Assembly (NCBI GenBank): GCA_002399265.1
Contig: DHDG01000039.1
Span: 33,847-97,846 of the forward strand
Length of the DNA stretch: 64,000 nucleotides
Source of the DNA: Firmicutes bacterium UBA4882
GTDB taxonomy: Bacteria > Bacillota > UBA4882
Reading direction: 5' to 3'
A program made the translations under genes and the position numbers. Shown here in pieces: positions 6,011 through 47,910 of this stretch. The notes under the pieces were generated by a model. It saw only the letters and a program-made list of their open reading frames with translations, searched no databases and was not told where the DNA came from. Each line of letters begins with the position of its first letter. The first letter of the stretch is position 1.

Positions 6011-6496
6011 TTAGGGATCGCAACCGAAGAACTGAAATACTGTCTGCCCAGGGGCAGGGCCGCTTGAAAATACACCACATTGGCCTGTGATGACATCAAG
6101 CTGCTCCAGGACGCTAACCTTCACCAGCACATGAGCGACTACTTTTTCGCATAAGAAGCCGTTGACCAGCTGGAAGTCGGTAAATACATCCTGCAGGAAC
6201 AGTTCTACGATTTGACCTGGAGTGGCAGCAGGAATATCGCATGCCGCACAAAACGGAATATCCTGAGCGATATGTCTGACAGTGTTGGTAGAGTCAACCC
6301 AGAATATTTGTTTGTGAACGAATCCCTGCAATACTACTTTGCCAGGGAAGAGATGATGGACGATATTAGTTAACGTGGCGACAATGCGATCCACCTTAAT
6401 GGCACCCGGCAATGCGAGAGCCGGCGCCTCTTCCACAATTTGAGCGATGCATTCGCCGACTACTCGTTCAGCCTTAATACGGGCTTTCTTCCACAT
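6011..6496 (-). CDS. Hypothetical protein, paralog 2 of a tandem pair
   Basis: The ORF is homologous to 5296..5778 along its full length, with the same RBS and the same MWKK start. Confidence 0.6.
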   Translation of the reverse strand: MWKKARIKAERVVGECIAQIVEEAPALALPGAIKVDRIVATLTNIVHHLFPGKVVLQGFVHKQIFWVDSTNTVRHIAQDIPFCAACDIPAATPGQIVELFLQDVFTDFQLVNGFLCEKVVAHVLVKVSVLEQLDVITGQCGVFSSGPAPGQTVFQFFGCDP

Positions 6497-6615
6497 TCGT
6501 GTCACCTGCCTTTCTGATTTCAGCTTATGCTGGCGATGGTCCTAAGTTTCGGGACAGCAGACCAACTTAATGCGCAAAGTGCTTTTAGCCGGACCGAGGC
6601 TTTGGTGTCGGGGCC

Positions 6616-7209: not shown

Positions 7210-7788
7210 TTACCTATATTGCCCGGAAGGGAAGAGGTTAAGCTCATAGAATCCGGAGGAGGTATCGTCAAAAATCGTCGCAGGATTCTGACCGGCAACT
7301 ACTGACTTGATACTCCACGCCGAGGAAGAGCCATTACCAAGAGTTACCGGAAAATAATAGTGCCGATCTGTAAAAGGCGGGGCTTCTGTCGGAGAATCTG
7401 ACACCACTTGCACCTTGCGCTGCGGATTCTCTTGCGCGTAGCCATCCGGTTTGGCGTTGCGGACAAGTCCGTTCATTGAGAAAATCCCGATGAGCGCCGC
7501 CGCGGCAGCCAACATGAGACCCCGGCTGATCACTTTATGATTACCTGGCACAAATTCTATTGTTACGGAATGGCTTAATTCTTCTTTTACCAATGCTGAG
7601 AAATCATGATAAGGTTTGATGGATTCCAGGCGACCCAACAAACACCGAACCTCTTTCAATTGATCCAGCAAATCGTTGCATTGCCTGCAACTGACCAGGT
7701 GCTGGCGCACCTGCCGTTTTTCTTCAGCATCAAGCTCGTCATCGATAAAAGCCGACAACAGATGTGAAAGACGTGTACAATCCATCAT
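7210..7788 (-). CDS. Anti-sigma factor, zinc-binding (ZAS-type HxxxCxxC) with one transmembrane segment
   Basis: The N-terminal helix MMDCTRLSHLLSAFIDDELD plus the HLVSCRQC motif are typical. A TM segment follows (LMLAAAAALIGIF). GAGGAGG lies 7 nt upstream of the ATG at 7788, and the gene starts 4 nt after the sigma factor stop. Confidence 0.75.
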   Translation of the reverse strand: MMDCTRLSHLLSAFIDDELDAEEKRQVRQHLVSCRQCNDLLDQLKEVRCLLGRLESIKPYHDFSALVKEELSHSVTIEFVPGNHKVISRGLMLAAAAALIGIFSMNGLVRNAKPDGYAQENPQRKVQVVSDSPTEAPPFTDRHYYFPVTLGNGSSSAWSIKSVVAGQNPATIFDDTSSGFYELNLFPSGQYR

Positions 7789-7792
7789 CACA

Positions 7793-8383
7793 CTACCTCC
7801 TCTCACTACTGGAGGCTAAATAGGGCTGGAGTAATTCCCGCAGCTGCCTGCGCCCCCGGTGAATACGGGAACGAACCGTACCAATCGAACAATTTAAAAT
7901 GTGCGAAATCTCCTCATATGAAAAACCTTGCACGTCGCAGAGTATAATTGCGGCGCGAAACTCGGGTGACAGTGTTTTCAATGCCTTGGCGAGAACCCCC
8001 TGAAACTCCAAGCTTTCATAATCCTCAACTGGTCCCGCCGAATTGTCCGCAAGCTCACGCGTAATATCGCCCTCACTGGTACGTATGGGATTATCAAGTG
8101 ATTCCTGACGAATTTTGCGATTCTTACGTACATGATCCAGATAAAGATTATGAATGATACGGTATACCCAGCGGTCAAAACATGTTCCGGGAGTAAACTT
8201 GTCGTAATTCTTATAAGCCCGATAGAATGCCTCCTGAGTCAAATCCTTGGCCTCTTCGGGGTCGCCGGTCAGCCGGTAAGCAAAGTTGTACAGAGCGCGC
8301 TCATGCGTTTGCACCAGTTTCTCAAAAGAATCCCAGCCGTTTTCAAGACCAGTCGGCAATGAGAGCGCTTTGGATTGCAGCAT
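7793..8383 (-). CDS. ECF-family RNA polymerase sigma factor (sigma-70 regions 2 and 4)
   Basis: Sigma region 2 (DLTQEAFYRAYKN) and region 4 (EEISHILNCSIGTVRSRIHRGR) are present. The gene is directly followed by the anti-sigma gene. Confidence 0.85.
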   Translation of the reverse strand: MLQSKALSLPTGLENGWDSFEKLVQTHERALYNFAYRLTGDPEEAKDLTQEAFYRAYKNYDKFTPGTCFDRWVYRIIHNLYLDHVRKNRKIRQESLDNPIRTSEGDITRELADNSAGPVEDYESLEFQGVLAKALKTLSPEFRAAIILCDVQGFSYEEISHILNCSIGTVRSRIHRGRRQLRELLQPYLASSSERR

Positions 8384-24008: not shown

Positions 24009-24874
24009 GGTGTACCTCCCGAAAGGTCGTCTACATTAAGAGCAGACCCATACGTGTTTTGGGCGTTTTTGGCGCTAGCGCCGGTCGGCTGTTTGAAAGG
24101 AACCGTAGCAAAACACGCTTCATCAATGACCTTACTGACGGCCGGTATGATATCCGCACGCGTCAGGTCAAATTGAAGCGGTGTCACAGACACTTTGTTC
24201 TGAAGGATAGCATCAAGATCGGTATCTTTTTCGCTGTTCATAACCGGCTCTCCGGCAATCCAGTAGTAGACTTTTCCCCGGGGGTCGACCCTCCTCTCAA
24301 TCACTTTGCTGTATTGGCGTCTTCCCAAACGTGCCACTGCGATGCCAGCAAGTTCCTCAGATCGCACTCCTGGGACATTAATGTTCAACAGCGTATTCTG
24401 TGGTAAAGGGTTTTTCAGCATAACAGCGGCAATTTCGGCGGCAACTTCTGCTGCCAACTCGAATCCGTCTCCAGAAAGGTCACAGAGCGAGACAGCCATC
24501 GCCGGAAAGCCAATCAGCGTGGCTTCAATGGCGGCTGATACAGTCCCGGAATAAAGAACATCTGTGCCTAGATTAGAGCCACGGTTAATGCCCGAGATTA
24601 CCAGATCCGGTTGCTCTGGTAGCAGCGCCCCTTCAATCGCCAGCTTGACGCAGTCTGCAGGTGTGCCGTCGACTTCCCAAGCCTGGGCCGCACCAGGAAT
24701 TTTGCGTTCTAACATACGTAGCGGGCGATGCAACGATATTGCATGCCCGCATGCACTCTGTTCGCGATCTGGAGCGATAACGTAGACTTTTCCCAGTTGT
24801 GAAATTCGATTACACAAAATATGCAAGCCTTCGGAATGGATGCCATCGTCATTCGCCAGTAGAAAAACAGCCAT
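24005..24874 (-). CDS. surE: 5'/3'-nucleotidase SurE
   Basis: The N-terminal motif LLANDDGIHSEGL is present, with full-length SurE similarity. Confidence 0.9.
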   Translation of the reverse strand: MAVFLLANDDGIHSEGLHILCNRISQLGKVYVIAPDREQSACGHAISLHRPLRMLERKIPGAAQAWEVDGTPADCVKLAIEGALLPEQPDLVISGINRGSNLGTDVLYSGTVSAAIEATLIGFPAMAVSLCDLSGDGFELAAEVAAEIAAVMLKNPLPQNTLLNINVPGVRSEELAGIAVARLGRRQYSKVIERRVDPRGKVYYWIAGEPVMNSEKDTDLDAILQNKVSVTPLQFDLTRADIIPAVSKVIDEACFATVPFKQPTGASAKNAQNTYGSALNVDDLSGGTP

Positions 24875-25530
24875 TATAAGTTTCTCACCCGTACTTTCAA
24901 AATTCCCTCAACATCTTTTAGTTCCCCAGCCAGTTGTGCAACCCCTGATCCACGTCCTGTTACATGTAGCGTCATATTAGCTTCTCCTTGATCGTCAGGT
25001 TCGATATTCACGTCCCGGATACTGAAATGCAGATTGCCAAGGACAACTGCAATAGCTCCCAATTGACCGGGACGATCCAGGATCCGGCACTCAATGATCA
25101 AAGTTTTCGAAGAAACAATATTTCTCTCGGCCTTATCCAGCAGCGTCAGGGTGCCTACAGCCATAAAGGCCGTAATCACAGCAGGAAGATAAAAACCGCT
25201 TCCCACCGCCAGACCAATTCCAGCAACCACCCAAAGACTCGCGGCAGTAGTCAGACCCCTGATGTTGGCACCTTCACGCATAATTGTGCCAGCTCCCAAG
25301 AAGCCAATTCCGCTAACCACCTGGGCTGCCAATCGAGCTGGATCGCGGGCTGTACCAAATTCGGGAAACGCATAGGCCGACACAATCATAATCAAGGCCG
25401 AACCGACACAAACGAGAATATGTGTGCGCAATCCCGCAGGTCGTCCGTGGCTTTCGCGCTCCAGTCCTATAAAGCCGCCCAAAATGCCGGCGCTAATCAA
25501 ACGGGCGATAATCTGCCAGTTATTGCCCAC
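24874..25530 (-). CDS. mgtC: MgtC/SapB-family membrane protein
   Basis: The MgtC signature ARLISAGILGGFIGLERE and an ACT-like C-terminal domain are present. The stop overlaps the surE start by 1 nt. Confidence 0.8.
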   Translation of the reverse strand: MGNNWQIIARLISAGILGGFIGLERESHGRPAGLRTHILVCVGSALIMIVSAYAFPEFGTARDPARLAAQVVSGIGFLGAGTIMREGANIRGLTTAASLWVVAGIGLAVGSGFYLPAVITAFMAVGTLTLLDKAERNIVSSKTLIIECRILDRPGQLGAIAVVLGNLHFSIRDVNIEPDDQGEANMTLHVTGRGSGVAQLAGELKDVEGILKVRVRNL

Positions 25531-25582: not shown

Positions 25583-27346
25583 TTATTGTGATAGATTTTG
25601 AATAAAATAACCAAACATCGCAGGCGTTATTCCGGGAAACGCTCTGCAAAGAGCTTCTATATCGATGGTATTGCTCTTAGCAAAAACGCGCAGTTGCTCC
25701 AGTGTATTTTCAATCTCAGGAATGGTCGAACCGCCAAGCGGGGTCAGGGTATTATTGCTCCATTTCAGTACCAGCTGGGACGATTGAAGCCAAAGGTTAG
25801 GATCAACCATTTCATCAATCAAGACAAGCTTGGGTGAAAGTGCTGCCAGCAACTCACATGACTCAGTATTTTGAGAATCCAGTAAAAACAGTGATGGCTT
25901 ATCCAGAAACTCCAATGCAATAGCAGGGACTGGCGCGTTCTTTGTCTTATTAATCCCTTGCAGCAGTGCAATGCTGAACCGGTCAGCGGCAATTGCTTTT
26001 CGCAGGCTTTTGGCCAAATCAGCGCGGGCCTCGGGAGAATCAGCATTCAGTGTGAGCTTTGCTAACAAACCTAAAAGTGACTCCAATTCCGATTGGATGC
26101 GACTTAATTGGAACTGCACAACTACCTTTTCCTGATCGGCAACCAGACCGCCATATTTGCCAGAATATCTGTTCAATAAATCTGACAGACGGCTCAGACT
26201 TTTTTCATATTTTCGCTGGGCCTTAGACGGGCTACTCTTGCCAGGATCCTTAAGCAGTTCACTTTCAATTTTAATGGTCTTTGATAGTGCCTTATAGACT
26301 TTTCTATTATCGAGAAACAGCGCCGGGTTAAACTGAATGGCCGGAACAGGCATTGCTTTTAGCCGACCTAAATCTTTAATAAGCGCATTCTCTTCACCCT
26401 TGAGTTTTCCATATTGATCAAGCAAGACCAAATGTTGTTCAAGAGTTTTGATTTCCTTTTCCAGGGAATCAAGCACTTCTTGCCTGAATGATAACTGCTG
26501 CCAGACCTGAACAAGCTGCTGCGATAGATCATATAGCTCTTTTTCTCCGCCGTAATAGGCAGGCGGATCCATCTGAGACAGACAGTCTTTTAAAGTGCCA
26601 ACAATTGGACCTGACATGACACAAGCCACAAATTTCTTGCGTTCATCTTTGAGAGAGAAGGACCATTTTATCAATGCAGCGGCGATTTCGGGGAGCGGAG
26701 CTGAATTCCAGTTCAGAGGCAGATATTTGTTTTTGAGTATAGCAACCTGCTGCTCAGTGATTTCTTTACCGACCAGCTGTGCAAAGCAGTCCGGTGAATG
26801 CGCAGGTACAACTTGAGGTACTGTGGCCCCGGAGAAAAAACTTCCGACATTCTGATTGCCCGCCAGAGTTTTGGAACCAGCCATGTCGTTCATGTTATTT
26901 AGAAAAGCAGTATAATCGCTTTTGGGTAACTCAAATTGCAGGACATCAGAAATCTCCTGATTACCCGTATTATCCAGCAGGTTCTGATGATCATACCCCG
27001 GAATTATTATTTCCCAACGCATCGGCAGCTGCTGCCCATATGCTGACATTAAATCGAAAATGTCATGTGAAAGCTTAAAGCAATGTATCACACAAATAAC
27101 GGTGCCCTGTCCGCCTGGGTGCGCGACAGGGCCACCGCATTCAAGCACTGTGTCACCGGCGACTAAGTAAACTGTTTTGTTCTTTTCGGCCCCGGTGATC
27201 TTTTTTTTGAGTAATGAGTTTAATTCATCACGGACTTTTTCATCTGAATCAATTGACGTTGCCCCAAGAATACTACGCAATTCGCTCCAGGATGCATGAT
27301 CAAATGTCAAGAAATAGTTGTCCGTGGATTGTCCTAAATTATGCAA
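25583..27346 (-). CDS. Hypothetical 587-aa soluble protein (N-terminal alpha/beta region, central coiled-coil-rich region); third gene of a cryptic three-gene operon
   Basis: No recognisable domain or nucleotide-binding motif. The ATG is preceded by GGGGGG 12 nt upstream. The gene follows gene B after a 60-nt spacer without a terminator. Confidence 0.6.
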   Translation of the reverse strand: MHNLGQSTDNYFLTFDHASWSELRSILGATSIDSDEKVRDELNSLLKKKITGAEKNKTVYLVAGDTVLECGGPVAHPGGQGTVICVIHCFKLSHDIFDLMSAYGQQLPMRWEIIIPGYDHQNLLDNTGNQEISDVLQFELPKSDYTAFLNNMNDMAGSKTLAGNQNVGSFFSGATVPQVVPAHSPDCFAQLVGKEITEQQVAILKNKYLPLNWNSAPLPEIAAALIKWSFSLKDERKKFVACVMSGPIVGTLKDCLSQMDPPAYYGGEKELYDLSQQLVQVWQQLSFRQEVLDSLEKEIKTLEQHLVLLDQYGKLKGEENALIKDLGRLKAMPVPAIQFNPALFLDNRKVYKALSKTIKIESELLKDPGKSSPSKAQRKYEKSLSRLSDLLNRYSGKYGGLVADQEKVVVQFQLSRIQSELESLLGLLAKLTLNADSPEARADLAKSLRKAIAADRFSIALLQGINKTKNAPVPAIALEFLDKPSLFLLDSQNTESCELLAALSPKLVLIDEMVDPNLWLQSSQLVLKWSNNTLTPLGGSTIPEIENTLEQLRVFAKSNTIDIEALCRAFPGITPAMFGYFIQNLSQ

Positions 27347-27406: not shown

Positions 27407-29221
27407 TCATTGGCCGCCTTTTAATTTAGCAATCATATCATCGATTTGCTTCTGGGACATGATCGGTTCTCCCTCATCTTTTGCCGGTCCTGCCATTATA
27501 GGAGCAGTTGTCTTGCCAGACGTGACTGGCAAAGGCGCCATCCCCATCCGGTTAGTTTGGAACGGCTGAACCTGCGACTGGCCCAAAGAAGGAGTCCTTA
27601 GACCAGGTTGACTTGTGGAAGGTTCCGGCATGGTTCGATTAACCGGCTGTGCGTTAAATGGCCGCGGTTGTGGCGGTTGTTGCTGCTGTGGTTGTTCCGG
27701 CAGGAACGGCTGTGCCGGCAACACGCTTCTTTGAAATTGAGCCATCGTGTCCGGATTGGAGGGCACCTGCCGAGCAAAAGGCTGCGACAGCGAGTTCGAG
27801 TTCGAGTTCAAGTTCGAATCAGCAGGTTTAGGATCATCACTATCGTTATTAGGGGCAAACTGCCTGAAAAGGTCGTCAATCGATTTCTGACTCATTGATA
27901 CTGCACTATAAGAACTTGGCTTAATACGATTCCCGGCCACATCTTTCATTGAATCGTTCATAGCGCGGCCTTCAGACGATGCTGCAACCTCTGGAACGGA
28001 ATAACCGGGCTTTTTAAGCAGCCTATCCGCTACATCTTGGGAAACATCGCCTTCTACAGCATAACTTTCGCTATATTTAATTTTTACCTTACCCTTATCA
28101 TTATAATCGGCGCTACCAGCACTGGGTTCGGAAACCAACTTTTCTGAAACACTCTCGACGTTTTTGGTAGCTTCATTTTCTCTCGGAAACACCCAGCCAT
28201 CCAATATGTTATTGGCAGGCTGTGCGTTGGCGGTTTGTGCACTGGTATTGCCAGAAATGAAGGGAGCACTATTTGCTTTGACGTCCAGAGAAAAGAGCGA
28301 ATCGCTCTGCTCTTGTTCCGGTACGGCGCTTCCGTTTGACAAATCTCCGCCGACCGAAAGGTCAAAATGAAGCTCTTCAGTTTGCGGAGCAGATTGCGCG
28401 TTCATTTCGAAACCCGGCACCGAACTTGCACCAACCTCCGCTGGTATTGCTGCTTCCTTAAAGAAAACAGGAGCTTGCTCAGCTGCCGGCGTTGATGGCA
28501 TCACCGGTGTCGGTGCAACTGGCATCGCTGAGGCCACGAATTCGTCGAAAGCAGGCGCAGGATCTGATTCTACTACTGGTGACGAAGGAGCAGCTTTGAC
28601 AATTTCCACCCAAGGCTTAGGCTGCGGCGCAGAAGGCCTTTCGCTGACTACTTCAGCCACTGGAGATACTGCAGGTTTTACCATTGGGGCCGCTGCAGGT
28701 TGTACCACTGGCGGTGGAGCTGGCGCTGCTGCGGGTTGTGCTGGCCTTTCGCTTTTGTAATAATGTGACTCTGAGGCGGATTCCTCCGGAAAGAAAAAGG
28801 AATAAAGCGCTTCTGCTGAAGGCGTGGGAATAAATTCATCTTCAGGCAAAAGGATTTCCCATGAAGCTTTAATTAAAACGCCTTCATTAAAGGCTGTCAC
28901 TGCATCACCATCGGAAGTTTGACGGCAGGAATGCACTCTCAATACCGAACCGGTATCCTTACGCACGAGCGTACAAGGTAGCACAAAGCATCTGGATAGC
29001 AGCAGCAGGTTGTTGCCTTCTTTAATAGCCCAAATATCCGACTCCAGAGTTTTCTGCAGCGTTGTTCTTGGATCGGAGGTGCGCGGATCGATTGGTAATT
29101 GTTTCTTTACTTCAGCGGGAATTTGAAACAGGATGCGCATGAATCCGTTCCAGCTGGCTTCTGTAAATTGCAGAGAGACTTCTTGTTCAATGCTAAATTC
29201 TCGTCCATGAAGTTGTTGCAT
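27407..29221 (-). CDS. Hypothetical protein: ~170-aa N-terminal globular domain followed by a ~430-aa Pro/Ala/Gln/Ser/Asn-rich disordered region
   Basis: The ATG (MQQLHG...) lies 1 nt after the gene C stop, with GGGGGG inside the gene C 3' end. The low-complexity region is extreme (PAQPAAAPAPPPVVQPAAAP..., NSNSNS, QPQQQQPPQPRP). No TM segment. The track ORF starts 14 codons earlier. Confidence 0.6.
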   Translation of the reverse strand: MQQLHGREFSIEQEVSLQFTEASWNGFMRILFQIPAEVKKQLPIDPRTSDPRTTLQKTLESDIWAIKEGNNLLLLSRCFVLPCTLVRKDTGSVLRVHSCRQTSDGDAVTAFNEGVLIKASWEILLPEDEFIPTPSAEALYSFFFPEESASESHYYKSERPAQPAAAPAPPPVVQPAAAPMVKPAVSPVAEVVSERPSAPQPKPWVEIVKAAPSSPVVESDPAPAFDEFVASAMPVAPTPVMPSTPAAEQAPVFFKEAAIPAEVGASSVPGFEMNAQSAPQTEELHFDLSVGGDLSNGSAVPEQEQSDSLFSLDVKANSAPFISGNTSAQTANAQPANNILDGWVFPRENEATKNVESVSEKLVSEPSAGSADYNDKGKVKIKYSESYAVEGDVSQDVADRLLKKPGYSVPEVAASSEGRAMNDSMKDVAGNRIKPSSYSAVSMSQKSIDDLFRQFAPNNDSDDPKPADSNLNSNSNSLSQPFARQVPSNPDTMAQFQRSVLPAQPFLPEQPQQQQPPQPRPFNAQPVNRTMPEPSTSQPGLRTPSLGQSQVQPFQTNRMGMAPLPVTSGKTTAPIMAGPAKDEGEPIMSQKQIDDMIAKLKGGQ

Positions 29222-29222
29222 C

Positions 29223-30581
29223 TTAATTCCCCCCGCCAGGATTGATAAGAGGGTTAATATCACTCATAACCCAGAACTTTTGCAGACCGGGAGCCAGAAA
29301 CTCCCACCACCCGGAATCCTTGACGCCACTTCGATAACGATGTCGAACTGCAACCGCTGGAATATCATGACTCAATACCGAAAGCTTGCCGACATTCAAA
29401 TCTGATTCAGTGTAGATATTTGTTCCGGCCTTCAAATAGTCAAAAGCGATCTGATCCTGCTTTATCCAGCCATCTAGTTGTGAATTCTGTACGTAAAGCC
29501 ACGGTTCCTGCAAGGAGTCATAATCTCTTTCGAGAATATCCAGTTTTTCACCGGATTGAAAGCGACCCTGAGGATCCCCTCCGCCAACTCTCGGGAAAAC
29601 ATTGACAACGCCTTTGGCATAACCGCGGATTGTTGTAACCGAAAACTCCTCACTGATAGGCAGTCGCAACGTTTTTGCTATCTCAGGAGCAGTCTCCCCC
29701 ACCCAATACTTGGCGATATACCAGGCTTGCTGAAAATACATCGGTTTGAACTGGTAGGCCCCGAAAAAAACTCCACCAATAATCATCAGGACCAGAGCTA
29801 CCTTAGCCAACTTTGACGAAGATCTGCTTCTGGATCTGGATATAGACTTTGATTTGGCACGGCGTTCAAATCGTCTTTGGGCTGGCCGCGGCTCCGTTCG
29901 TGGACCGGTGCTGCACTCAAAAGCAGTTACGTGAAAACGCTCTAACTCAATTGAATCCAAGACTTTCGGAAACTTGCCGAAATAGGCGTCTAAATCGGAC
30001 GGTTTCAAGATCCTGTATGGAAAAGGCAAGAAATTATATTGCTTGTCTTGCGGAAAATCATGCAAAATTATGATGCTCGGTATAACATTGAGGGTTGCTT
30101 TTTTTACGCGTGCCTGTGTCCATTGGCAGACAGCGAGGATTGTTTCCTGCAACTCTGTTTTGGAATCAGCAAGATTCTGACCCTCTAAATCAGCCCTGTC
30201 AAATATAACGAAGATACCTGCAGAACCTGACGCAATAAGGGCCGGATCCCTTTTTTGGATAGACCAGTCATCCGGCATTTGTATCAGTTTCCCGGCTGCC
30301 TGAATTTTGGCTTGATGTTCAAATACCCACTGGGCATCCTGATCATTTTTCGAAAACAAAGCGATCATGAAAAGAGCAACTACAGCTAACAGAAATAAAA
30401 GCCCGCCCGCCATTGCGAATCTGAAATCAACAAACCCGCCAATGGCCAGGATTACCATAGCTGTTGTTATAACCAGCCCGCCGATTGAGATCAGCAACAG
30501 GAAATTGAAAATGCGGTTTTTCGGAGAAAAACCCTTAGCGGGTGAAACATCCGCTATAATGCTCGTCAATAACCCGGCCAA
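29223..30581 (-). CDS. Membrane protein with 3 TM helices: cytoplasmic NERD-like segment between TM2 and TM3, basic Ser/Arg-rich linker, extracytoplasmic LysM-like + SH3b-like C-terminal region
   Basis: The start is TTG after AGGTGG, 6 nt upstream. The motif GSAGIFVIFDRADLEG...W resembles the NERD core GIFVIEVK...W. The C-terminal GEKLDILERDYD...WLYVQNSQLDGWIKQDQIAF is SH3b-like. The segment GETAPEIAKTLRLPISE is LysM-like. Confidence 0.55.
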   Translation of the reverse strand: MAGLLTSIIADVSPAKGFSPKNRIFNFLLLISIGGLVITTAMVILAIGGFVDFRFAMAGGLLFLLAVVALFMIALFSKNDQDAQWVFEHQAKIQAAGKLIQMPDDWSIQKRDPALIASGSAGIFVIFDRADLEGQNLADSKTELQETILAVCQWTQARVKKATLNVIPSIIILHDFPQDKQYNFLPFPYRILKPSDLDAYFGKFPKVLDSIELERFHVTAFECSTGPRTEPRPAQRRFERRAKSKSISRSRSRSSSKLAKVALVLMIIGGVFFGAYQFKPMYFQQAWYIAKYWVGETAPEIAKTLRLPISEEFSVTTIRGYAKGVVNVFPRVGGGDPQGRFQSGEKLDILERDYDSLQEPWLYVQNSQLDGWIKQDQIAFDYLKAGTNIYTESDLNVGKLSVLSHDIPAVAVRHRYRSGVKDSGWWEFLAPGLQKFWVMSDINPLINPGGGN

Positions 30582-30699
30582 TTACAGCCACCTGCACTTC
30601 CAAGAAACATACTCCAAATAAAGATACCTTTTACTATTTATCGGCAAAAGGCACTGTCATCTTTAGCTGTTATAGAGAAATATCTCCAGACATTTAGGT

Positions 30700-30729
30700 A
30701 AAAAAACAAGCCCGGGCTCTTCCCGGGCT
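30700..30729 (-). terminator. Rho-independent terminator after speH, upstream of the three-gene operon
   Basis: The stem gcccggg/cccgggc is followed by UUGUUUUUUU on the minus strand. Confidence 0.65.
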
Positions 30730-43320: not shown

Positions 43321-44058
43321 TTACGGGAACAGCACTCCCAAGACGCCAGCGGCAACGGCTAATACGATCGCGATAATGCTCCAGACACGAGCGTCTTTTT
43401 GCGCTTTTTCGGCATCTGCCTTGGCAGTTTCCAATTCGGAATTCAGCTGCGCTATTTCAGCGTCGTGTTTTTCATCCGCCGCTGCGGAATCCTCTGTAAG
43501 TGCGGCCACAGAATTCTCAAGAGCGGAAAGATCCGTTTCCATGCCTGTCAATTTTTGTTCTGCTTCGGTAACCCTGTTTTTGAGGGCGATGATTTCCTGC
43601 AAGGATTTGGCCATTTCATCCCGCACCTGACCGGTCTCTGTTTTCCAGGCTGCCATATCAGCACCCATCGCAGTGCGATCACGCTCGTATTGTGCGAGCG
43701 CTTCTTCCAGATTTTTTGTGCGCAAAGAAAGAGCTACTAGTTCTTGCCGAAATTCACCAGTTAGCCGGCGCATCAGATCAGCGTCTTCCTGATTCATGCT
43801 AATGGAACCCGCCACTGAGTCACCGAGCAGTCTTGAGACAACCACGGCCAACGTGAAACGATCGACCGGTTGGTTCCCCCTGAAAGTATTGTCAGCGTAT
43901 AATCCTAAGTACCCTTCTGAAACAAGCTTTTTCACGGCCTGGTACGCCCAATGGTTTGACTGGACATCCGCAATCTGCGGATCAGCCGCTGACGCGACAG
44001 CAGCTGTCGAAACTGCCAGGGTGAGTGCCAGTATGAGAGCGATCGACAAACGTTTCAT
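43321..44058 (-). CDS. SLH-domain protein with coiled-coil region and C-terminal TM anchor
   Basis: A signal peptide and an SLH motif (WAYQAVKKLVSEGYLGLYADNTFRGNQPVDRFTLAVVVSRLL) are present. The ATG at 44058 is preceded by AGGAGG. Confidence 0.7.
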   Translation of the reverse strand: MKRLSIALILALTLAVSTAAVASAADPQIADVQSNHWAYQAVKKLVSEGYLGLYADNTFRGNQPVDRFTLAVVVSRLLGDSVAGSISMNQEDADLMRRLTGEFRQELVALSLRTKNLEEALAQYERDRTAMGADMAAWKTETGQVRDEMAKSLQEIIALKNRVTEAEQKLTGMETDLSALENSVAALTEDSAAADEKHDAEIAQLNSELETAKADAEKAQKDARVWSIIAIVLAVAAGVLGVLFP

Positions 44059-44143
44059 GCCCGTACCTCCTGCCTTTTTATTCAATCTTATTTGGCATGC
44101 CGCCACTGACTGCTATGGCGCAATCAGCTTATGGCGCAACCTA

Positions 44144-46126
44144 CTATTGATCCTTATTCTCGCTGACTGCGGTGACTGGCACAGGTTTTCCAGACGGATC
44201 CAGCAAGCGCAGAACGGCACTCTGCATGGCCAGCGGACCGTTACCGCCGGACTTTCTCCTGACCCAAACCGTGGCAAAATTCTCAAACTGTTTGCCTGTC
44301 GCTGTGGAACGGGTAGCTTCCAGCAACACCGCGTTCCCTTCCATGACAGGCTCTCTCAGCCAAGATAAAACTTTGCCGTCTTGCACCATAAACCCGCCTC
44401 TTTGAACAGCCAGCAGTTCTGTATCCGAATCAAAAGTTACCCGCAGCGCGAGCTGGGACGCTTCTGGCAGATTGACCAGGTCAATATCCACTTGGTACCA
44501 TCCTGGCCGTTCCGTGACCGGTGCAGAAACGCTCCTTATCTGACGAGGTAAATCAGGCCATTGAATCGCATTGGACCCAGAAATTACCTTGTTTTCATTA
44601 CATCCCGTCAAGATCTTGAACCCGGTAGAACCTACCCCACCCGAAGAAACAACGGACCAGCGTACCAACACTTCAGTGCCGGGGGCAAGTTTGCCAATAT
44701 AGCGGCGTGACGACTCTCCAGGGGCCAGTTCAATGCCGTTACCCGGAGCCAGCTCAGCCCAGGTATCAGTTGCAACATCTCCGCCATCATTGGAGACAAT
44801 CGCCTGCACTGCCACAGGATACGGTTCATATCGTCCCGTGACTGATTTAACCATAGGCGGGTCCAAGACCGTCAATCCCAGTTTGGGAGGGGCAATCAGC
44901 TTGATTTTGCGTTCGACGATGACCGGGTCACTTTCAAAGGCGTGACCGCGAACATTAATGGTTGCTGTCCCGGAGCCTACCGCTGTGAAAGTCCAAGCGG
45001 CTTGACGCGTTTCGCCCGGCTTTAGTGACCCAATATCTACTTTAATGGGGTTCAAAAGCCGCAATGAATTGGGAACGTCAATAGTCAGTGATACGTCACG
45101 TGCTACACCTTCACCGCGGTTTTCCAGATAGGCTAATACAATGTACTGCTCGGTAGTTCCCGACTGAACAGACGCCGGCGCGGTGACACCCAGTGTCAAC
45201 TCGCCCTTAGAAATGGTGACGCCACCCAGGCCATAATATGTTACCCGTGACAGAGCGGCTCCGGGAGGTAAATCCGTTGCATCCCACATTAGAGCTACGG
45301 CACTATCATATTCAAATTCACCAACTCTGGTAAAGTCTCTGCCCGCAATCAAGACGGGGTTCCATGGCTGATCCGCAAAGGTGCCCCAGTTGGAAAAGAA
45401 AAGACGATCAGGGGTGGTCAGCTCACCGCCGGCAAGTGTCCCCTGGGCGATGACTTTGGGCTCTTCCAGAGAATCAAAAGCCTGCCAGTATGACTGGATA
45501 GTTGAGCCCTGCGCGCCATAATCCGTAAGGATCTGTTTCTCGCCCATACGGAACGGAGCACCGTCATTTTCCCCAAGCATGGCGTCAATGCAAACCCGCA
45601 AACCGACTGAATGGTAGACTTGTCCTCTGTTCACCATGGTATACGCAATTCTGGCGGTATCCGGCAACCCGGTAGTTGGCCCGTCAACAATCGAGATGTA
45701 TTGCGTTACTTCCAGATCACCATAGCGCCACGCCGTGACAATTGCCCCGTCGCGCACTTCCGGTTTTTGAATCATCAGGCCGGTGGCCAACCCCTCGCCG
45801 GCACGCTTTGATACCGGACCGCCAAACGCGAACAATAAGCCGTTCATATTAATCGTGGTATAAGAGGTCCAGGGAAGAGGGCGGCCATAAATCAAAGGCT
45901 GGTTATCGTCGTCATCACGTTCAGGATCTCCGCCTGTTACATCAACCGCAAAACGGCCGCGCCCATCCGCGGTATTATTGACAAAAACCTTGATATATTC
46001 GTTTTCAATTGTCACCAAGGACTGGTCTTCCGCAGAAACCAGCGCACCCAATAAAAAGGCGACCGCAATTACGGCTGTCCAAAGCAGGGTAAATGAAGTA
46101 TACTTCTTCGCGTGTCTCATTCTCAT
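44144..46126 (-). CDS. Large secreted protein (660 aa, signal peptide, beta-rich; no recognisable catalytic motif), translationally coupled to tonB
   Basis: The ATG overlaps the tonB TGA (ATGA). The N-terminus is signal-peptide-like (KKYTSFTLLWTAVIAVAFLLGALVSA). The protein does not look like a TonB-dependent receptor (no plug, no C-terminal aromatic residue). Confidence 0.6.
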   Translation of the reverse strand: MRMRHAKKYTSFTLLWTAVIAVAFLLGALVSAEDQSLVTIENEYIKVFVNNTADGRGRFAVDVTGGDPERDDDDNQPLIYGRPLPWTSYTTINMNGLLFAFGGPVSKRAGEGLATGLMIQKPEVRDGAIVTAWRYGDLEVTQYISIVDGPTTGLPDTARIAYTMVNRGQVYHSVGLRVCIDAMLGENDGAPFRMGEKQILTDYGAQGSTIQSYWQAFDSLEEPKVIAQGTLAGGELTTPDRLFFSNWGTFADQPWNPVLIAGRDFTRVGEFEYDSAVALMWDATDLPPGAALSRVTYYGLGGVTISKGELTLGVTAPASVQSGTTEQYIVLAYLENRGEGVARDVSLTIDVPNSLRLLNPIKVDIGSLKPGETRQAAWTFTAVGSGTATINVRGHAFESDPVIVERKIKLIAPPKLGLTVLDPPMVKSVTGRYEPYPVAVQAIVSNDGGDVATDTWAELAPGNGIELAPGESSRRYIGKLAPGTEVLVRWSVVSSGGVGSTGFKILTGCNENKVISGSNAIQWPDLPRQIRSVSAPVTERPGWYQVDIDLVNLPEASQLALRVTFDSDTELLAVQRGGFMVQDGKVLSWLREPVMEGNAVLLEATRSTATGKQFENFATVWVRRKSGGNGPLAMQSAVLRLLDPSGKPVPVTAVSENKDQ

Positions 46127-46869
46127 GGCTGCGCTTCGCTCCTTTCCCACTGCTCGCTGCCCTGAAAAACAACTTTGACTTCGCCGCTGCGGAAAATGAG
46201 GGCGATCTTTATTTTCACAGGGAATGCCGGACGCGTATATTGCCATGCCTCTTTCAGAGCACGCAGTGAATAGGAATCCAGCCTTTGATCACCGGAAGCT
46301 GATAGCAGTACCACCTGAATCTCACCTTCCGGAGTCAACCTGACCTCTGTCAATACTTCTCCTTCTGAGCCTTCGTTCTGAGCATTTTTAGGATAAGTCA
46401 CCGGTTGACTGAGAACAAAGCCTTCCCCACTGCCGAGTCCCAGTCCCTTGTTTCCGCCTTGCGATGCACCGTTATTGCCGGCGCCCGATCCAGGCGAGCC
46501 AGGCGATGAATCAGACGGCACCGGCGGCACTGTGGAGCTATCTTGGGGCAATGTTTTGATCGGTTCATTAGTCTTGGGCTGCTGGGCGGTTTTTATTGGC
46601 GGGGATTCCTTTGGAGGTGGTTCTTTTTGCTGCGGCCGTTGTTGCTGTTCTTGAGCAGCTTCATTGACATTAATCTGCACAGCAGCAGTTTGCTCGGCGC
46701 GGCCGTCAGAAATCGTTGGACCCAGTTCGACAAAGCCGACCTCCAAAACTTCCATGCCGTTGCCTGCGGAAAGTCCTCCGCCAGGTACTGACGCCAACAG
46801 CAATAAGACTACATGCAGGATCAGTGATATGGTCCAGGAAATACCTTTACGCCAACCTGCGCTCATCAA
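46123..46869 (-). CDS. tonB: TonB-like energy transducer (TM anchor, Pro-rich spacer, TonB C-terminal domain)
   Basis: The architecture and the C-terminal domain pattern fit TonB. The gene follows exbD with a 4-nt overlap. Confidence 0.7.
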   Translation of the reverse strand: MMSAGWRKGISWTISLILHVVLLLLASVPGGGLSAGNGMEVLEVGFVELGPTISDGRAEQTAAVQINVNEAAQEQQQRPQQKEPPPKESPPIKTAQQPKTNEPIKTLPQDSSTVPPVPSDSSPGSPGSGAGNNGASQGGNKGLGLGSGEGFVLSQPVTYPKNAQNEGSEGEVLTEVRLTPEGEIQVVLLSASGDQRLDSYSLRALKEAWQYTRPAFPVKIKIALIFRSGEVKVVFQGSEQWERSEAQP

Positions 46870-47294
46870 TCAATCACCCCGTCATCGGAGGGACCTTGAT
46901 CCACGCGGCGTACACCCAGCGCAGGTCTTTCTGCTCCTCCCTCCCTAATCAGGTCCAGAGCGGCCACCAGGTCTTCGTATGCCACTTTGCGATCCGGATA
47001 CAAGACTACTTGCATCTGCGGGTTATCGATCAATGATTGCGTAACCCGCGCGGAGACTTCCGCAGCAGGAATCCGCAGACCTTCGATGAAATATTGCCCC
47101 TCGGTATCAAGCGCCACAACCAATTGCTCAATCTCAGCGACCGGGGCAGTGCTTGAGTCTGGAAGAGAAACCGGAATGGAAGCTGCTCCATTATCAAAAG
47201 TACCATAGATCACGAAAAAGAAGACCAGCATTACCATTACATCGATCAGAGGTACAATGTCAACCCTGGCTTTACGCTTCCAGTATCGAGCCAT
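46866..47294 (-). CDS. exbD: Biopolymer transport protein ExbD/TolR
   Basis: The N-terminus IVPLIDVMVMLVFFF is typical, and the size matches. Confidence 0.85.
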   Translation of the reverse strand: MARYWKRKARVDIVPLIDVMVMLVFFFVIYGTFDNGAASIPVSLPDSSTAPVAEIEQLVVALDTEGQYFIEGLRIPAAEVSARVTQSLIDNPQMQVVLYPDRKVAYEDLVAALDLIREGGAERPALGVRRVDQGPSDDGVID

Positions 47295-47910
47295 GGTTAC
47301 CCCTCCGATCTTTTAACATTGCCGAGAAATCAATTGTCTCACGTTCCAGCATCTCGGCGACGGATTCAGCGCGATGCACAAAATAGTTCATGGCCACCAG
47401 TGTAGGAATCGCAATAATTAATCCTGATGCAGTAGTAATCAGCGCTTCAGCAATACCCAAGCCAACCGATTCCATCCTGGCCATCGCCGAGGCTGCGCCA
47501 AGCAAGCGGAAAGTATTGAGAATGCCAGTAACAGTACCCAACAGTCCCAGAAGGGGCGCTGCCGTTACGATTGTGTCCAGAATGGAGAGCCCCGAAAATA
47601 ACTTTTTTCTTTCCAGACTGGCGGCCGCTTGCATTTCAAGCTCAGCATTTTCAGGATTTGCCGCTGCCAGGCCATTTGATAAAACCCGCATTACTGGACC
47701 GTCCGAATCGTTAAACAGTAGAACCGCTTCATTGGTAGCACCGGCGGCAATCAGCTTCCGGGCTGCTCTGAGACGATCCGATAATCCATTTTCCGTTTTG
47801 CGCAGCCGGACAAAAAAGATGATCCTTTCTACTATCACCGCCAGAGCCGTGACAGAACACAGCAACAGAGGATACATAACGGGCCCGCCTTTGGAAATTA
47901 TTGTGAACAT
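47272..47910 (-). CDS. exbB: MotA/TolQ/ExbB proton-channel protein
   Basis: Three TM helices and the conserved C-terminal helix region are present. RBS AAGGAGGA lies 7 nt upstream. Confidence 0.85.
   Translation of the reverse strand: MFTIISKGGPVMYPLLLCSVTALAVIVERIIFFVRLRKTENGLSDRLRAARKLIAAGATNEAVLLFNDSDGPVMRVLSNGLAAANPENAELEMQAAASLERKKLFSGLSILDTIVTAAPLLGLLGTVTGILNTFRLLGAASAMARMESVGLGIAEALITTASGLIIAIPTLVAMNYFVHRAESVAEMLERETIDFSAMLKDRRGNHGSILEA

Follow-up and report, generated by a model that had tools for sequence, protein, structure and literature searches.

A motif-bearing protein with a probably disordered tail in a three-gene chromosomal locus of uncultured Bacillota

Gene B, found at positions 27407..29221 on the reverse strand of the 64,000-nucleotide stretch of DNA analysed here (the window), is a real, constrained gene. 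It encodes a protein of 604 amino acids (plus stop codon) that consists of a small folded head and a long, probably disordered tail. A plausible but tentative reading is that this protein is a cytoplasmic, modular tether or adaptor within an envelope-associated module formed with the products of its neighbours, genes A and C. The compact N-terminal domain would probably anchor the protein in a complex. The neighbouring coiled-coil protein C appears to begin with a paralogous domain, and expression of the membrane protein A would be translationally coupled to that of gene B. The tail of about 450 residues may provide a flexible, length-tolerant spacer presenting four or five conserved short motifs. 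The best kept of these, two predicted amphipathic helices with the pattern [LM][ST]Q..IDAL[LI], one of them at the extreme C-terminus, are putative docking sites for a partner. Taken together, A, B and C would constitute a lineage-specific module at the cell envelope, in which B associates with A and C and recruits further proteins through its motifs.

If this reading is right, gene B represents a new protein family whose head domain is shared by two adjacent genes and is unmatched in the PDB and in the predicted viral structures of BFVD. It would also provide a disordered tail with unusually clear conserved short linear motifs, set in a fixed three-gene module. Short linear motifs in the disordered regions of bacterial proteins are poorly catalogued, and the two conserved FliM-like helices pose a concrete, testable question about a peptide partner. 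The general impact is modest for now, because the family comprises about nine uncultured lineages and its function is inferred.

Gene structure and composition

The assignment of gene B relies on its open reading frame and ribosome binding site, on homologues and on dN/dS. Its start is an ATG preceded by GGGGGGA, 1 nt past the stop codon of the upstream gene A. This start codon is fixed by the homologue in lineage L010, where a 185-bp gap separates a partial gene A fragment from gene B. A GTG further upstream, at 29263, would lengthen the protein by MILTLLSILAGGIK; it was not accepted as the start because it overlaps the conserved C-terminus of gene A and because the L010 homologue begins at the aligned Met beyond its gap. 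The frame is conserved in relatives and under purifying selection, with dN/dS values of 0.05-0.07 for the head and of 0.22-0.35 for the tail; every indel preserves the reading frame. These observations speak against a wrong or untranslated frame, an outcome that an earlier reading made from the sequence only had named as a refutation.

Gene B is the top compositional outlier among the 47 ORFs of the window. Pro, Ala, Ser, Gln and Asn together make up a fraction of 0.44, compared with a median of 0.29, and in the best 150-residue segment 0.57, compared with 0.33. Residues 156-604 contain 13.4 % Pro, 12.2 % Ala, 11.8 % Ser, 8.2 % Val, 7.3 % Gln and 4.9 % Asn. The sequence-only reading had described a Pro/Ala/Gln/Ser/Asn-rich region; the tail is indeed rich in Pro, Ala and Ser, but Asn shows no notable enrichment. 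The strings quoted there (PAQPAAAPAPPPVVQPAAAP, NLNSNSNS, QPQQQQPPQPRP and QKQIDDMIAKLKGGQ) all occur in the translation. The description of the protein as almost entirely low complexity is too strong, as entropy in 30-residue windows ranges from 2.9 to 3.7 bits and the tail contains conserved islands. The sole other Pro-rich ORF within the window encodes a TonB-like protein.

No hydrophobic segment is found in gene B, the maximum 19-residue Kyte-Doolittle average being 1.08, in agreement with the earlier statement that it lacks a transmembrane segment and a signal peptide. With neither of these features and with the start codon fixed, the protein is probably cytoplasmic.

The N-terminal head

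Residues 6-150 (28772..29206, reverse strand) form a folded alpha/beta domain in the AlphaFold2 (AF2) model, with a pLDDT of 85.4 and a pTM of 0.81. A confident model was obtained only after distant homologues had been added and the query cropped to the head; full-length gene B modelled with five sequences reached a pLDDT of 35. The globular N-terminus had been put at about 170 residues, and in the model the fold stops at about residue 150. The general architecture proposed from the sequence, a small folded head followed by a long disordered tail and a short C-terminal helix, is borne out by AF2 and hydropathy.

Among solved (PDB) and predicted viral (BFVD) structures there is no convincing fold match for the head. 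Foldseek TM-scores did not exceed 0.32, and none of its E-values reached 0.001. In the comparison with the hypothetical protein PYCH_01220 of Pyrococcus yayanosii (PDB 6l7q) and with the RelE/ParE toxin fold, only about half of the head aligns, at around 10 % identity. No function is known for 6l7q itself, and a literature search on PYCH_01220 found nothing.

The head could be read as a RelE/ParE-like toxin or another enzymatic domain regulated by the tail, with A-B-C as a conflict or defence module. Seven residues of the head are invariant (Cys83, His97, Ser98, Cys99, Arg100, Asp104 and Asp106) and could make up an active or metal site, and for the transmembrane region of gene A DUF4231 is a very weak hit (E 0.19). 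Yet homology would call for far higher structural scores, and the head has no clear fold match to solved toxins of the RelE/ParE superfamily. No small antitoxin gene lies beside gene B, its neighbours being the 452-residue A and the 587-residue C. Gene B has no match in PADLOC or PHROGs, and tblastn of its N-domain against plasmid and phage records gave none either. Even between species whose dS is saturated, the locus keeps its place and its synteny in the core chromosome, and its typical GC content favours a vertically inherited gene of housekeeping type. A toxin or defence function is therefore very improbable.

The tail and its conserved motifs

The remainder of the protein, residues 151-604 (27410..28771, reverse strand), is a Pro/Ala/Ser-rich tail. 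Its composition, its low pLDDT (below 50 nearly everywhere) and its evolutionary behaviour, as seen in indels and dN/dS, point to disorder over about 450 residues. AF2 models helices only at residues 395-401, 445-454 and 590-601, and all three coincide with conserved islands.

These islands, all encoded on the reverse strand, keep a constant order across nine homologues while the spacers between them vary in length. The first, SLFSLD (an xLFxL island; residues 308-313, 28283..28300), is kept in eight of the nine. Two of the three distant homologues retain the LF island as PLFKLGE and PLFRLGE, and L010 has no LF at the aligned position. The second island, VKIKYSESYAVEG..QDVADRLLKKPG (KYSEGYTVE…LLKKPG; residues 379-406, 28004..28087), is found in all nine and contains the helix at 395-401. 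It is followed by an internal motif copy, MSQKSIDDLF (residues 443-452, 27866..27895), within which the helix at 445-454 is largely placed. Two further islands, QPVNRTMPEP (residues 525-534) and QTNRMGM (residues 555-561), lie within 27539..27649; in the homologue comparison, the five close homologues share them without change, while the distant ones have degenerate versions. The C-terminal peptide EPIMSQKQIDDMIAKLKGGQ (residues 585-604, 27410..27469), identified by conservation and AF2, holds the second motif copy. It is the sole tail segment with a pLDDT of 56-72 and includes the helix modelled at 590-601.

The two copies conform to the pattern [LM][STK]Q..ID[ADE][LMI][LIVF], which has exactly two matches in every one of the nine homologues. 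The C-terminal copy invariably starts 16-17 residues from the end of the protein. The chance frequency of the pattern is 2.5e-8 per position, and no further match occurs in 197,000 residues of six-frame ORFs.

Gene B thus shows what marks the disordered linker-and-motif class: a fast-evolving, indel-tolerant spacer of biased composition interspersed with conserved short motifs. The suggestion that it acts as a scaffold or spacer suits this anatomy. The C-terminal linker and tail peptide of FtsZ and the tail of SSB exemplify a linker-plus-terminal-peptide architecture, which is a class and not a family. Like gene B, these proteins combine a folded domain, a fast and variable spacer and a conserved end peptide. 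Unlike them, gene B carries several internal motifs too, and its head is neither a GTPase nor an OB fold, with no kinship to either in sequence or fold.

Gene neighbourhood

Gene A (29223..30581, reverse strand) encodes a 452-residue predicted membrane protein, as judged from hydropathy, charge and SH3_3 matches. Two transmembrane segments at the N-terminus are followed by a soluble domain, then by a basic linker with a net charge of +10, another transmembrane segment and a C-terminal region. The latter gives SH3_3 matches in four of six homologues, with a best E-value of 0.0015 that lies under the Pfam gathering threshold. In the topology predicted from hydropathy and the +10 linker, the SH3b-like region lies on the periplasmic or cell-wall side, and the basic linker and the soluble middle domain on the cytoplasmic side. 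Gene A is always directly 5′ of gene B, and stop and start abut or overlap wherever both genes are complete.

The predicted position of the SH3-like region of gene A outside the membrane would suit an exported gene B, serving as an extracytoplasmic Pro/Ala-rich envelope spacer of the TonB/TolA-linker or wall-spanning kind, whose PxxP-rich stretch might touch that region. Pro/Ala-rich segments are typical of linkers that span the envelope, the other Pro-rich ORF of the window is TonB-like, and gene B shares with TonB and TolA an extended Pro/Ala-rich linker and an envelope-related gene neighbourhood. Against export, hydropathy and Pfam reveal no signal peptide, transmembrane segment, LPXTG, SLH or LysM in gene B, which also lacks the N-terminal membrane anchor and the TonB_C or TolA domain of those proteins. 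Conservation of its hydrophilic N-terminus starts at Met1, the invariant Cys and His of the head are more typical of a cytoplasmic protein, and the C-terminus (...AKLKGGQ) is no sorting signal. Export is thus unlikely, and a cytoplasmic tether or adaptor is preferred.

Gene C (25583..27346, reverse strand) encodes 587 residues arranged as a B-like N-domain, a middle part resembling a coiled coil and a conserved domain at the C-terminus, a division based on hhalign and HMM comparisons. The N-domain of gene B aligns with gene C at an E-value of 2.2e-4 over 108 co-linear columns (hhalign probability 45 %), compared with an E-value of 0.11 over 14 columns in a control against gene A. Genes B and C are also each other's best non-self HMM match. 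Paralogy of the two N-domains is therefore moderately supported by sequence comparison. Elsewhere gene C gives weak coiled-coil-type matches only, and a PDB profile search of genes A and C returned weak SH3 or coiled-coil noise only. A JGI name for gene C, ‘regulator of replication initiation timing’, was dropped because no replication-related match accompanies these coiled-coil hits. Gene C lies downstream of gene B in every lineage but L010 and, being missing there, is not obligatory.

The chromosomal gene order is constant, speD-[A-B-C]-mgtC-surE (save for gene C in L010). An intrinsic terminator of speD with an 8-bp stem, seven GC pairs and a T run (30709..30729, reverse strand) is kept in L001, L004 and L013 and delimits the A-B-C transcription unit on its upstream side. 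Between it and gene A lies a candidate promoter of sigma-70-like type, ATGACA-16-AATAGT (30633..30660, reverse strand), found by a consensus scan. The block is conserved amid an otherwise diverged intergenic region, and TATAAT stands in L004 and L013. The next strong terminator past gene A follows DUF4264. The genes might equally well be transcribed together with mgtC, surE and ypmA, which offers no clue to function.

The regulatory context bears on another possibility, namely that gene B is, like SpoVID, SipL and SafA, a sporulation-specific scaffold for morphogenesis or the coat. Coat morphogenetic proteins are scaffolds that are often modular and possess long disordered regions. The organism may be a spore former, given that the window also encodes, at 6011..6505, a protein with a SPOCS (SipL) domain (E 3.8e-5). 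However, genes A, B and C contain no SPOCS, LysM or other coat-protein domain, and no homology between gene B and SpoVID, SipL or SafA is detected. The element upstream of gene A is, by consensus match alone, of the housekeeping sigma-70 type, and the operon neighbours speD, mgtC and surE are not sporulation genes. A role in the coat is accordingly improbable. Lacking SPOCS and LysM and with a sigma-70-like promoter candidate upstream, gene B lends no specific support to the examples offered with the scaffold suggestion, which were spore-coat proteins, divisome linkers and phase-separating factors.

Resemblance to the FliM docking peptide

The two helices of the tail raise the question of what they might bind. 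They could mimic the N-terminal ‘EIDAL’ peptide of FliM and FliY, in which case gene B would dock a phosphorylated CheY-like receiver or a MinD/FlhG-type ATPase and thereby couple signalling or a positioning ATPase to the A/C envelope module. The EIDAL peptide is the docking site for CheY-P and FlhG (PMC6946799; bioRxiv 10.1101/2022.04.21.489128). The positions L-S-Q-x-x-I-D-A-L-L are common to gene B and FliM/FliY, and in both the helical peptide stands beside a disordered stretch. The pattern derived solely from the 18 B-family motifs matches residues 6-15 of Salmonella FliM, LSQAEIDALL (PDB 8umd_C), a match that is no independent test because FliM was picked for its resemblance. Such a pattern is expected about 0.025 times per million residues. 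It also matches FliM and FliY of Bacillus subtilis. The C-terminal helix of gene B would be displayed at a chain terminus beyond a disordered stretch, in the manner of FliM.

Other observations count against this mimicry. In a search of the motif profile against 177,635 PDB sequences, FliM ranks 11th (E 1.4), behind lysozymes containing LTQNQFDALV, so its likeness is statistically inseparable from that of a generic capped helix. None of the 18 B-family motifs has the Glu of EIDAL; the residue preceding I-D is Q, S, T, D or A. In FliM this Glu is highly conserved, and its replacement by Lys (E9K) impairs chemotaxis (bioRxiv 10.1101/2022.04.21.489128). The motifs of gene B are internal and C-terminal, unlike the N-terminal peptide of FliM. 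No FliM, FliN, CheC or SPOA domain is found in gene B with Pfam or NCBIfam, the short C-terminal and internal peptides give no FliM or FliN match in these databases, and no flagellar, che or minD-like genes are seen in the window or in the homologous loci. Docking of the EIDAL type is hence of low probability.

A broader version would make A-B-C a new envelope-associated machine of an uncultured Bacillota lineage that is probably diderm, with a B/C fold unmatched in the PDB and BFVD. Gene B would then act as a disordered hub with two degenerate EIDAL-type helices, through which it would recruit a CheY-like receiver or an ATPase of the MinD/FlhG/ParA type. Though quite improbable, this would, if true, constitute the first use of a flagellar-switch docking peptide outside the flagellar C-ring. 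The A-B-(C) module, the N-domain common to gene C and the two FliM-like helical motifs were absent from the sequence-only reading.

Distribution and length variation

The gene B family is found in about nine lineages, all of them uncultured Bacillota, and the nine homologues comprise five close ones, three distant ones and that of L013. The contigs bearing these loci derive from anaerobic-digester or fermentation samples. Pfam, NCBIfam, PHROGs and PADLOC scans of genes A, B and C with nine relatives yielded nothing above noise. Gene B itself has no sequence match in these databases or in the PDB, nor does it match Pfam together with eight relatives at E-values up to 1, and PDB profile searches with the full-length protein or its N-domain were likewise negative. 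Membership in a surface-anchored family, which had been considered earlier, finds no match, and neither does any other family. A hit to P0017 (E 6.7e-5) was rejected as a spurious match to a repeat protein. GTDB genomes scanned with gene B patterns gave nothing, and a metagenome scan added one locus only. A SpeD scan led to L005, a metagenome-assembled genome (MAG) of the same clade that ends after speD, and to L006, a Peptococcaceae MAG without synteny.

Within the family, each pair of species differs by about 20 in-frame indel events in the tail, and the length of gene B ranges from 460 to 617 residues between species. The underlying DNA had been called repeat-prone, which is marginally true: Tandem Repeats Finder (TRF) detects two micro-repeats (9 bp x3.1 and 6 bp x4.5) in a sequence otherwise weakly repetitive. 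Variation in length among strains had also been anticipated, and it is present but small, amounting to (NS)2-3 and (PTAx)3-5. In a sister species, proteins of 615, 611 and 607 residues differ through PTA[IV] units, present as (PTAx)3-5. The 6-bp microsatellite (27791..27817; CGAGTT x4.5 on the forward strand), which encodes (NS)n in gene B on the reverse strand, is strain-polymorphic: cluster members of 604 and 602 residues are one NS unit apart, with (NS)3 and (NS)2 at this repeat.

Gene B, a constrained orphan

Gene B is an ORF of 604 aa in the window (at 27407..29221, reverse strand). Its ATG at 29221 is preceded by the Shine-Dalgarno sequence GGGGGGA, and the TAA of the upstream gene ends 1 nt before it. 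A longer start at GTG 29263 is unlikely, as it would overlap the conserved C-terminus of the upstream membrane protein, gene A; it is also disfavoured by a distant homologue (L010), whose aligned Met comes after a 185-bp intergenic gap separating a partial A fragment from B. In every locus with complete copies of the two genes, A abuts or overlaps B.

The frame is under selection. By the Nei-Gojobori method, dN/dS is 0.05-0.07 in the N-terminal domain (head) and 0.22-0.35 in the remainder (tail), and the roughly 20 indel events per species pair are every one in frame, indicating that the B frame is the translated one. The sequence-only reading had named an untranslated frame, or conservation of another frame in relatives, as what would count against it; the constraint found here speaks for the B frame. 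The neighbouring SpeD is 96-97% identical between genomes whose B proteins share only 43-52%, which marks the B tail as fast-evolving.

The distribution of B is narrow. When 5.8 billion proteins were searched with a word index, the only matches were its identical cluster and four relatives (43-52% identity). Three distant members (460-501 aa) came from an exhaustive HMM search of 1.84 billion representatives, run with the N-domain profile, and one extra locus from a metagenome scan. NCBI records label the sources as ‘Firmicutes/Bacillota bacterium’ MAGs. On sequence comparison, B is a genuine gene under constraint, and its relatives are very few. Genes A and C, which flank it, are equally orphan (four proteins each). 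No library searched describes the B family, its head fold or the A-B-C module; the architecture itself, in which a folded domain leads into a disordered linker carrying short motifs, belongs to a well-known class. B is a clean, well-delimited orphan, and its motifs are testable.

Head domain

AlphaFold2 (AF2) gave a pLDDT of 35 for full-length B (five sequences). Cropped to aa 1-160 (seven sequences), the head reached pLDDT 85.4 and pTM 0.81, with four of five models at pLDDT about 80 or more; it is confidently predicted to fold as an alpha/beta domain, from about aa 6 to 150. Foldseek found no match to this model in PDB or BFVD at E <= 0.001 (TM-scores at most about 0.35), so the predicted fold has no convincing structural neighbour in these collections. 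Invariant head residues include C83, H97, S98, C99, R100, D104 and D106. That the head is a toxin-like enzymatic domain is highly improbable.

Predicted disordered tail and conserved islands

The tail is rich in P, A, S, V and Q (13.4, 12.2, 11.8, 8.2 and 7.3% of aa 156-604), and of the window's 47 plausible ORFs, B is the top compositional outlier (P+A+S+Q+N fraction 0.44 versus a median of 0.29). All peptide strings cited in the sequence-only reading are found in B, which also lacks any hydrophobic segment, in agreement with the absence of a TM segment or signal peptide noted there; a role as an exported envelope spacer is very unlikely. ‘Almost entirely low complexity’ was an overstatement, as windowed entropies of B are 2.9-3.7 bits. 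Nor is the DNA as repeat-prone as proposed: Tandem Repeats Finder reports just two micro-repeats. The predicted length variation between strains does occur, on a small scale. Members of the same 90% cluster measure 604 or 602 aa, a difference of one NS unit encoded by a 6-bp repeat (27791..27817), and in another species (P0005) lengths of 615, 611 and 607 aa correspond to 5, 4 and 3 PTA[IV] units. A tandem array of this tetrapeptide lies at aa about 175-200 of the L004/L013 homologue.

Aligned across nine homologues, the tail is a chain of conserved islands with variable spacers between them. One island, xLFxL, is kept in eight of nine and absent from L010; a second reads ‘V.hKhS.GYTLEG..P.D.V..LLKK’. 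The pattern [LM][STK]Q..ID[ADE][LMI][LIVF] occurs twice, as an internal copy and as one always 16-17 residues from the C-terminus. The only tail helices in the full-length AF2 model (aa 395-401, 445-454 and 590-601) all coincide with islands.

The twice-occurring motif has a chance frequency of about 2.5e-8 per position, and in the six-frame ORFs of the window and all fetched loci (197,000 residues) only B proteins match it. The motif resembles the N-terminal LSQxEIDALL peptide of FliM/FliY, a docking site for CheY-P and FlhG (PMC6946799; bioRxiv 10.1101/2022.04.21.489128), and the pattern, built from B alone, matches residues 6-15 of Salmonella FliM. However, in a PDB profile search with 14 motif instances FliM ranked 11 (E 1.4), below phage lysozymes, and the motif peptides had no match in NCBIfam or Pfam. 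The Glu of EIDAL, which is functionally important (bioRxiv 10.1101/2022.04.21.489128) and present in the FliM peptide, is missing from all 18 B-family instances. These results weaken the link, and B as an EIDAL-mimic docking platform is very unlikely. As a lead, the likeness suggests that the helices may act as docking peptides; it is not evidence of family membership.

The best-supported reading, tentative and at slightly less than an even chance, makes B a cytoplasmic tether or adaptor, with a head that would join A and/or C in a complex. The tail would act as a flexible spacer, tolerant of length change, that presents its conserved short motifs to partners.

Partner genes A and C

Gene A (29223..30581, reverse strand) encodes an orphan predicted to be a membrane protein with three TM segments. 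Two of them lie at the N-terminus; a soluble domain and a linker separate these from TM3, beyond which comes the C-terminal region. The linker before TM3 is Arg/Ser/Lys-rich (RRFERRAKSKSISRSRSRSSSK; net charge +10), and the C-terminal region gives weak, sub-threshold bacterial SH3 (SH3_3) matches in four of six homologues. By the positive-inside rule, this SH3-like part is probably outside the membrane, in the periplasm.

Gene C (25583..27346, reverse strand; 587 aa) consists of an N-domain, a coiled-coil-like centre, visible only as weak SMC, RacA and LmuB-type noise, and a conserved C-terminal domain. Its N-terminal residues (about 110) align co-linearly with the B head, and the N-domain appears paralogous to that head. 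BLASTP gave E 0.04 and hhalign, after addition of the distant B sequences, E 2.2e-4 (probability 45%); the control, B head versus A, gave E 0.11 over 14 columns. The two are each other's best non-self HMM match, and C83 and C99 of B align with the invariant C70 and C89 of C. The JGI name for C, ‘regulator of replication initiation timing’, found no replication-related match in any tool applied to C, only weak coiled-coil-type ones.

Gene neighbourhood

Every locus has the order miaB-mutS-mutL-miaA-hfq-(Met gamma-lyase family)-speD-[A-B-C]-mgtC-surE-DUF4264, then divergent lexA. C lies downstream of B except in L010; L011 and L012 show only the beginning of it. In L010 (1911..2085), a GC-rich hairpin (GCCCTGCCATGGCCGGCAGGGC) and then mgtC come directly after B, suggesting that C is dispensable or has been relocated in that lineage. 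Downstream of speD is a strong terminator, upstream of A a conserved sigma-70-like block, and beyond DUF4264 the next strong terminator. At the mgtC/surE junction, a near-consensus sigma-70 promoter-like site (TTGAAA-16-TATAAT, 11/12 matches; 24873..24900, reverse strand) may give surE its own internal promoter inside a putative long operon.

In GC content the module is in line with the DNA around it, and tblastn of the B N-domain against plasmid and phage records found no match. That the module keeps its syntenic place while dS is saturated favours vertical inheritance over a mobile defence island.

The window carries TonB_C, ExbB and SLH genes, plus a SPOCS-domain gene, pointing to a Bacillota of diderm type, perhaps a spore former. 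A role for B as a sporulation coat scaffold is given very low probability. Genes for an SLH-domain protein, a 700-aa protein without Pfam match, a TonB_C protein and an ExbB/MotA-family protein cluster at 43321..47910 (reverse strand), suggestive of an outer-membrane (diderm) envelope in this MAG. The SPOCS gene is a 164-aa ORF (6011..6505, reverse strand) whose SipL/SPOCS spore-coat morphogenesis domain (PF12673, E 3.8e-5) is barely over the gathering score; an ECF sigma factor and zf-HC2 anti-sigma pair (7210..8383) adjoins it.
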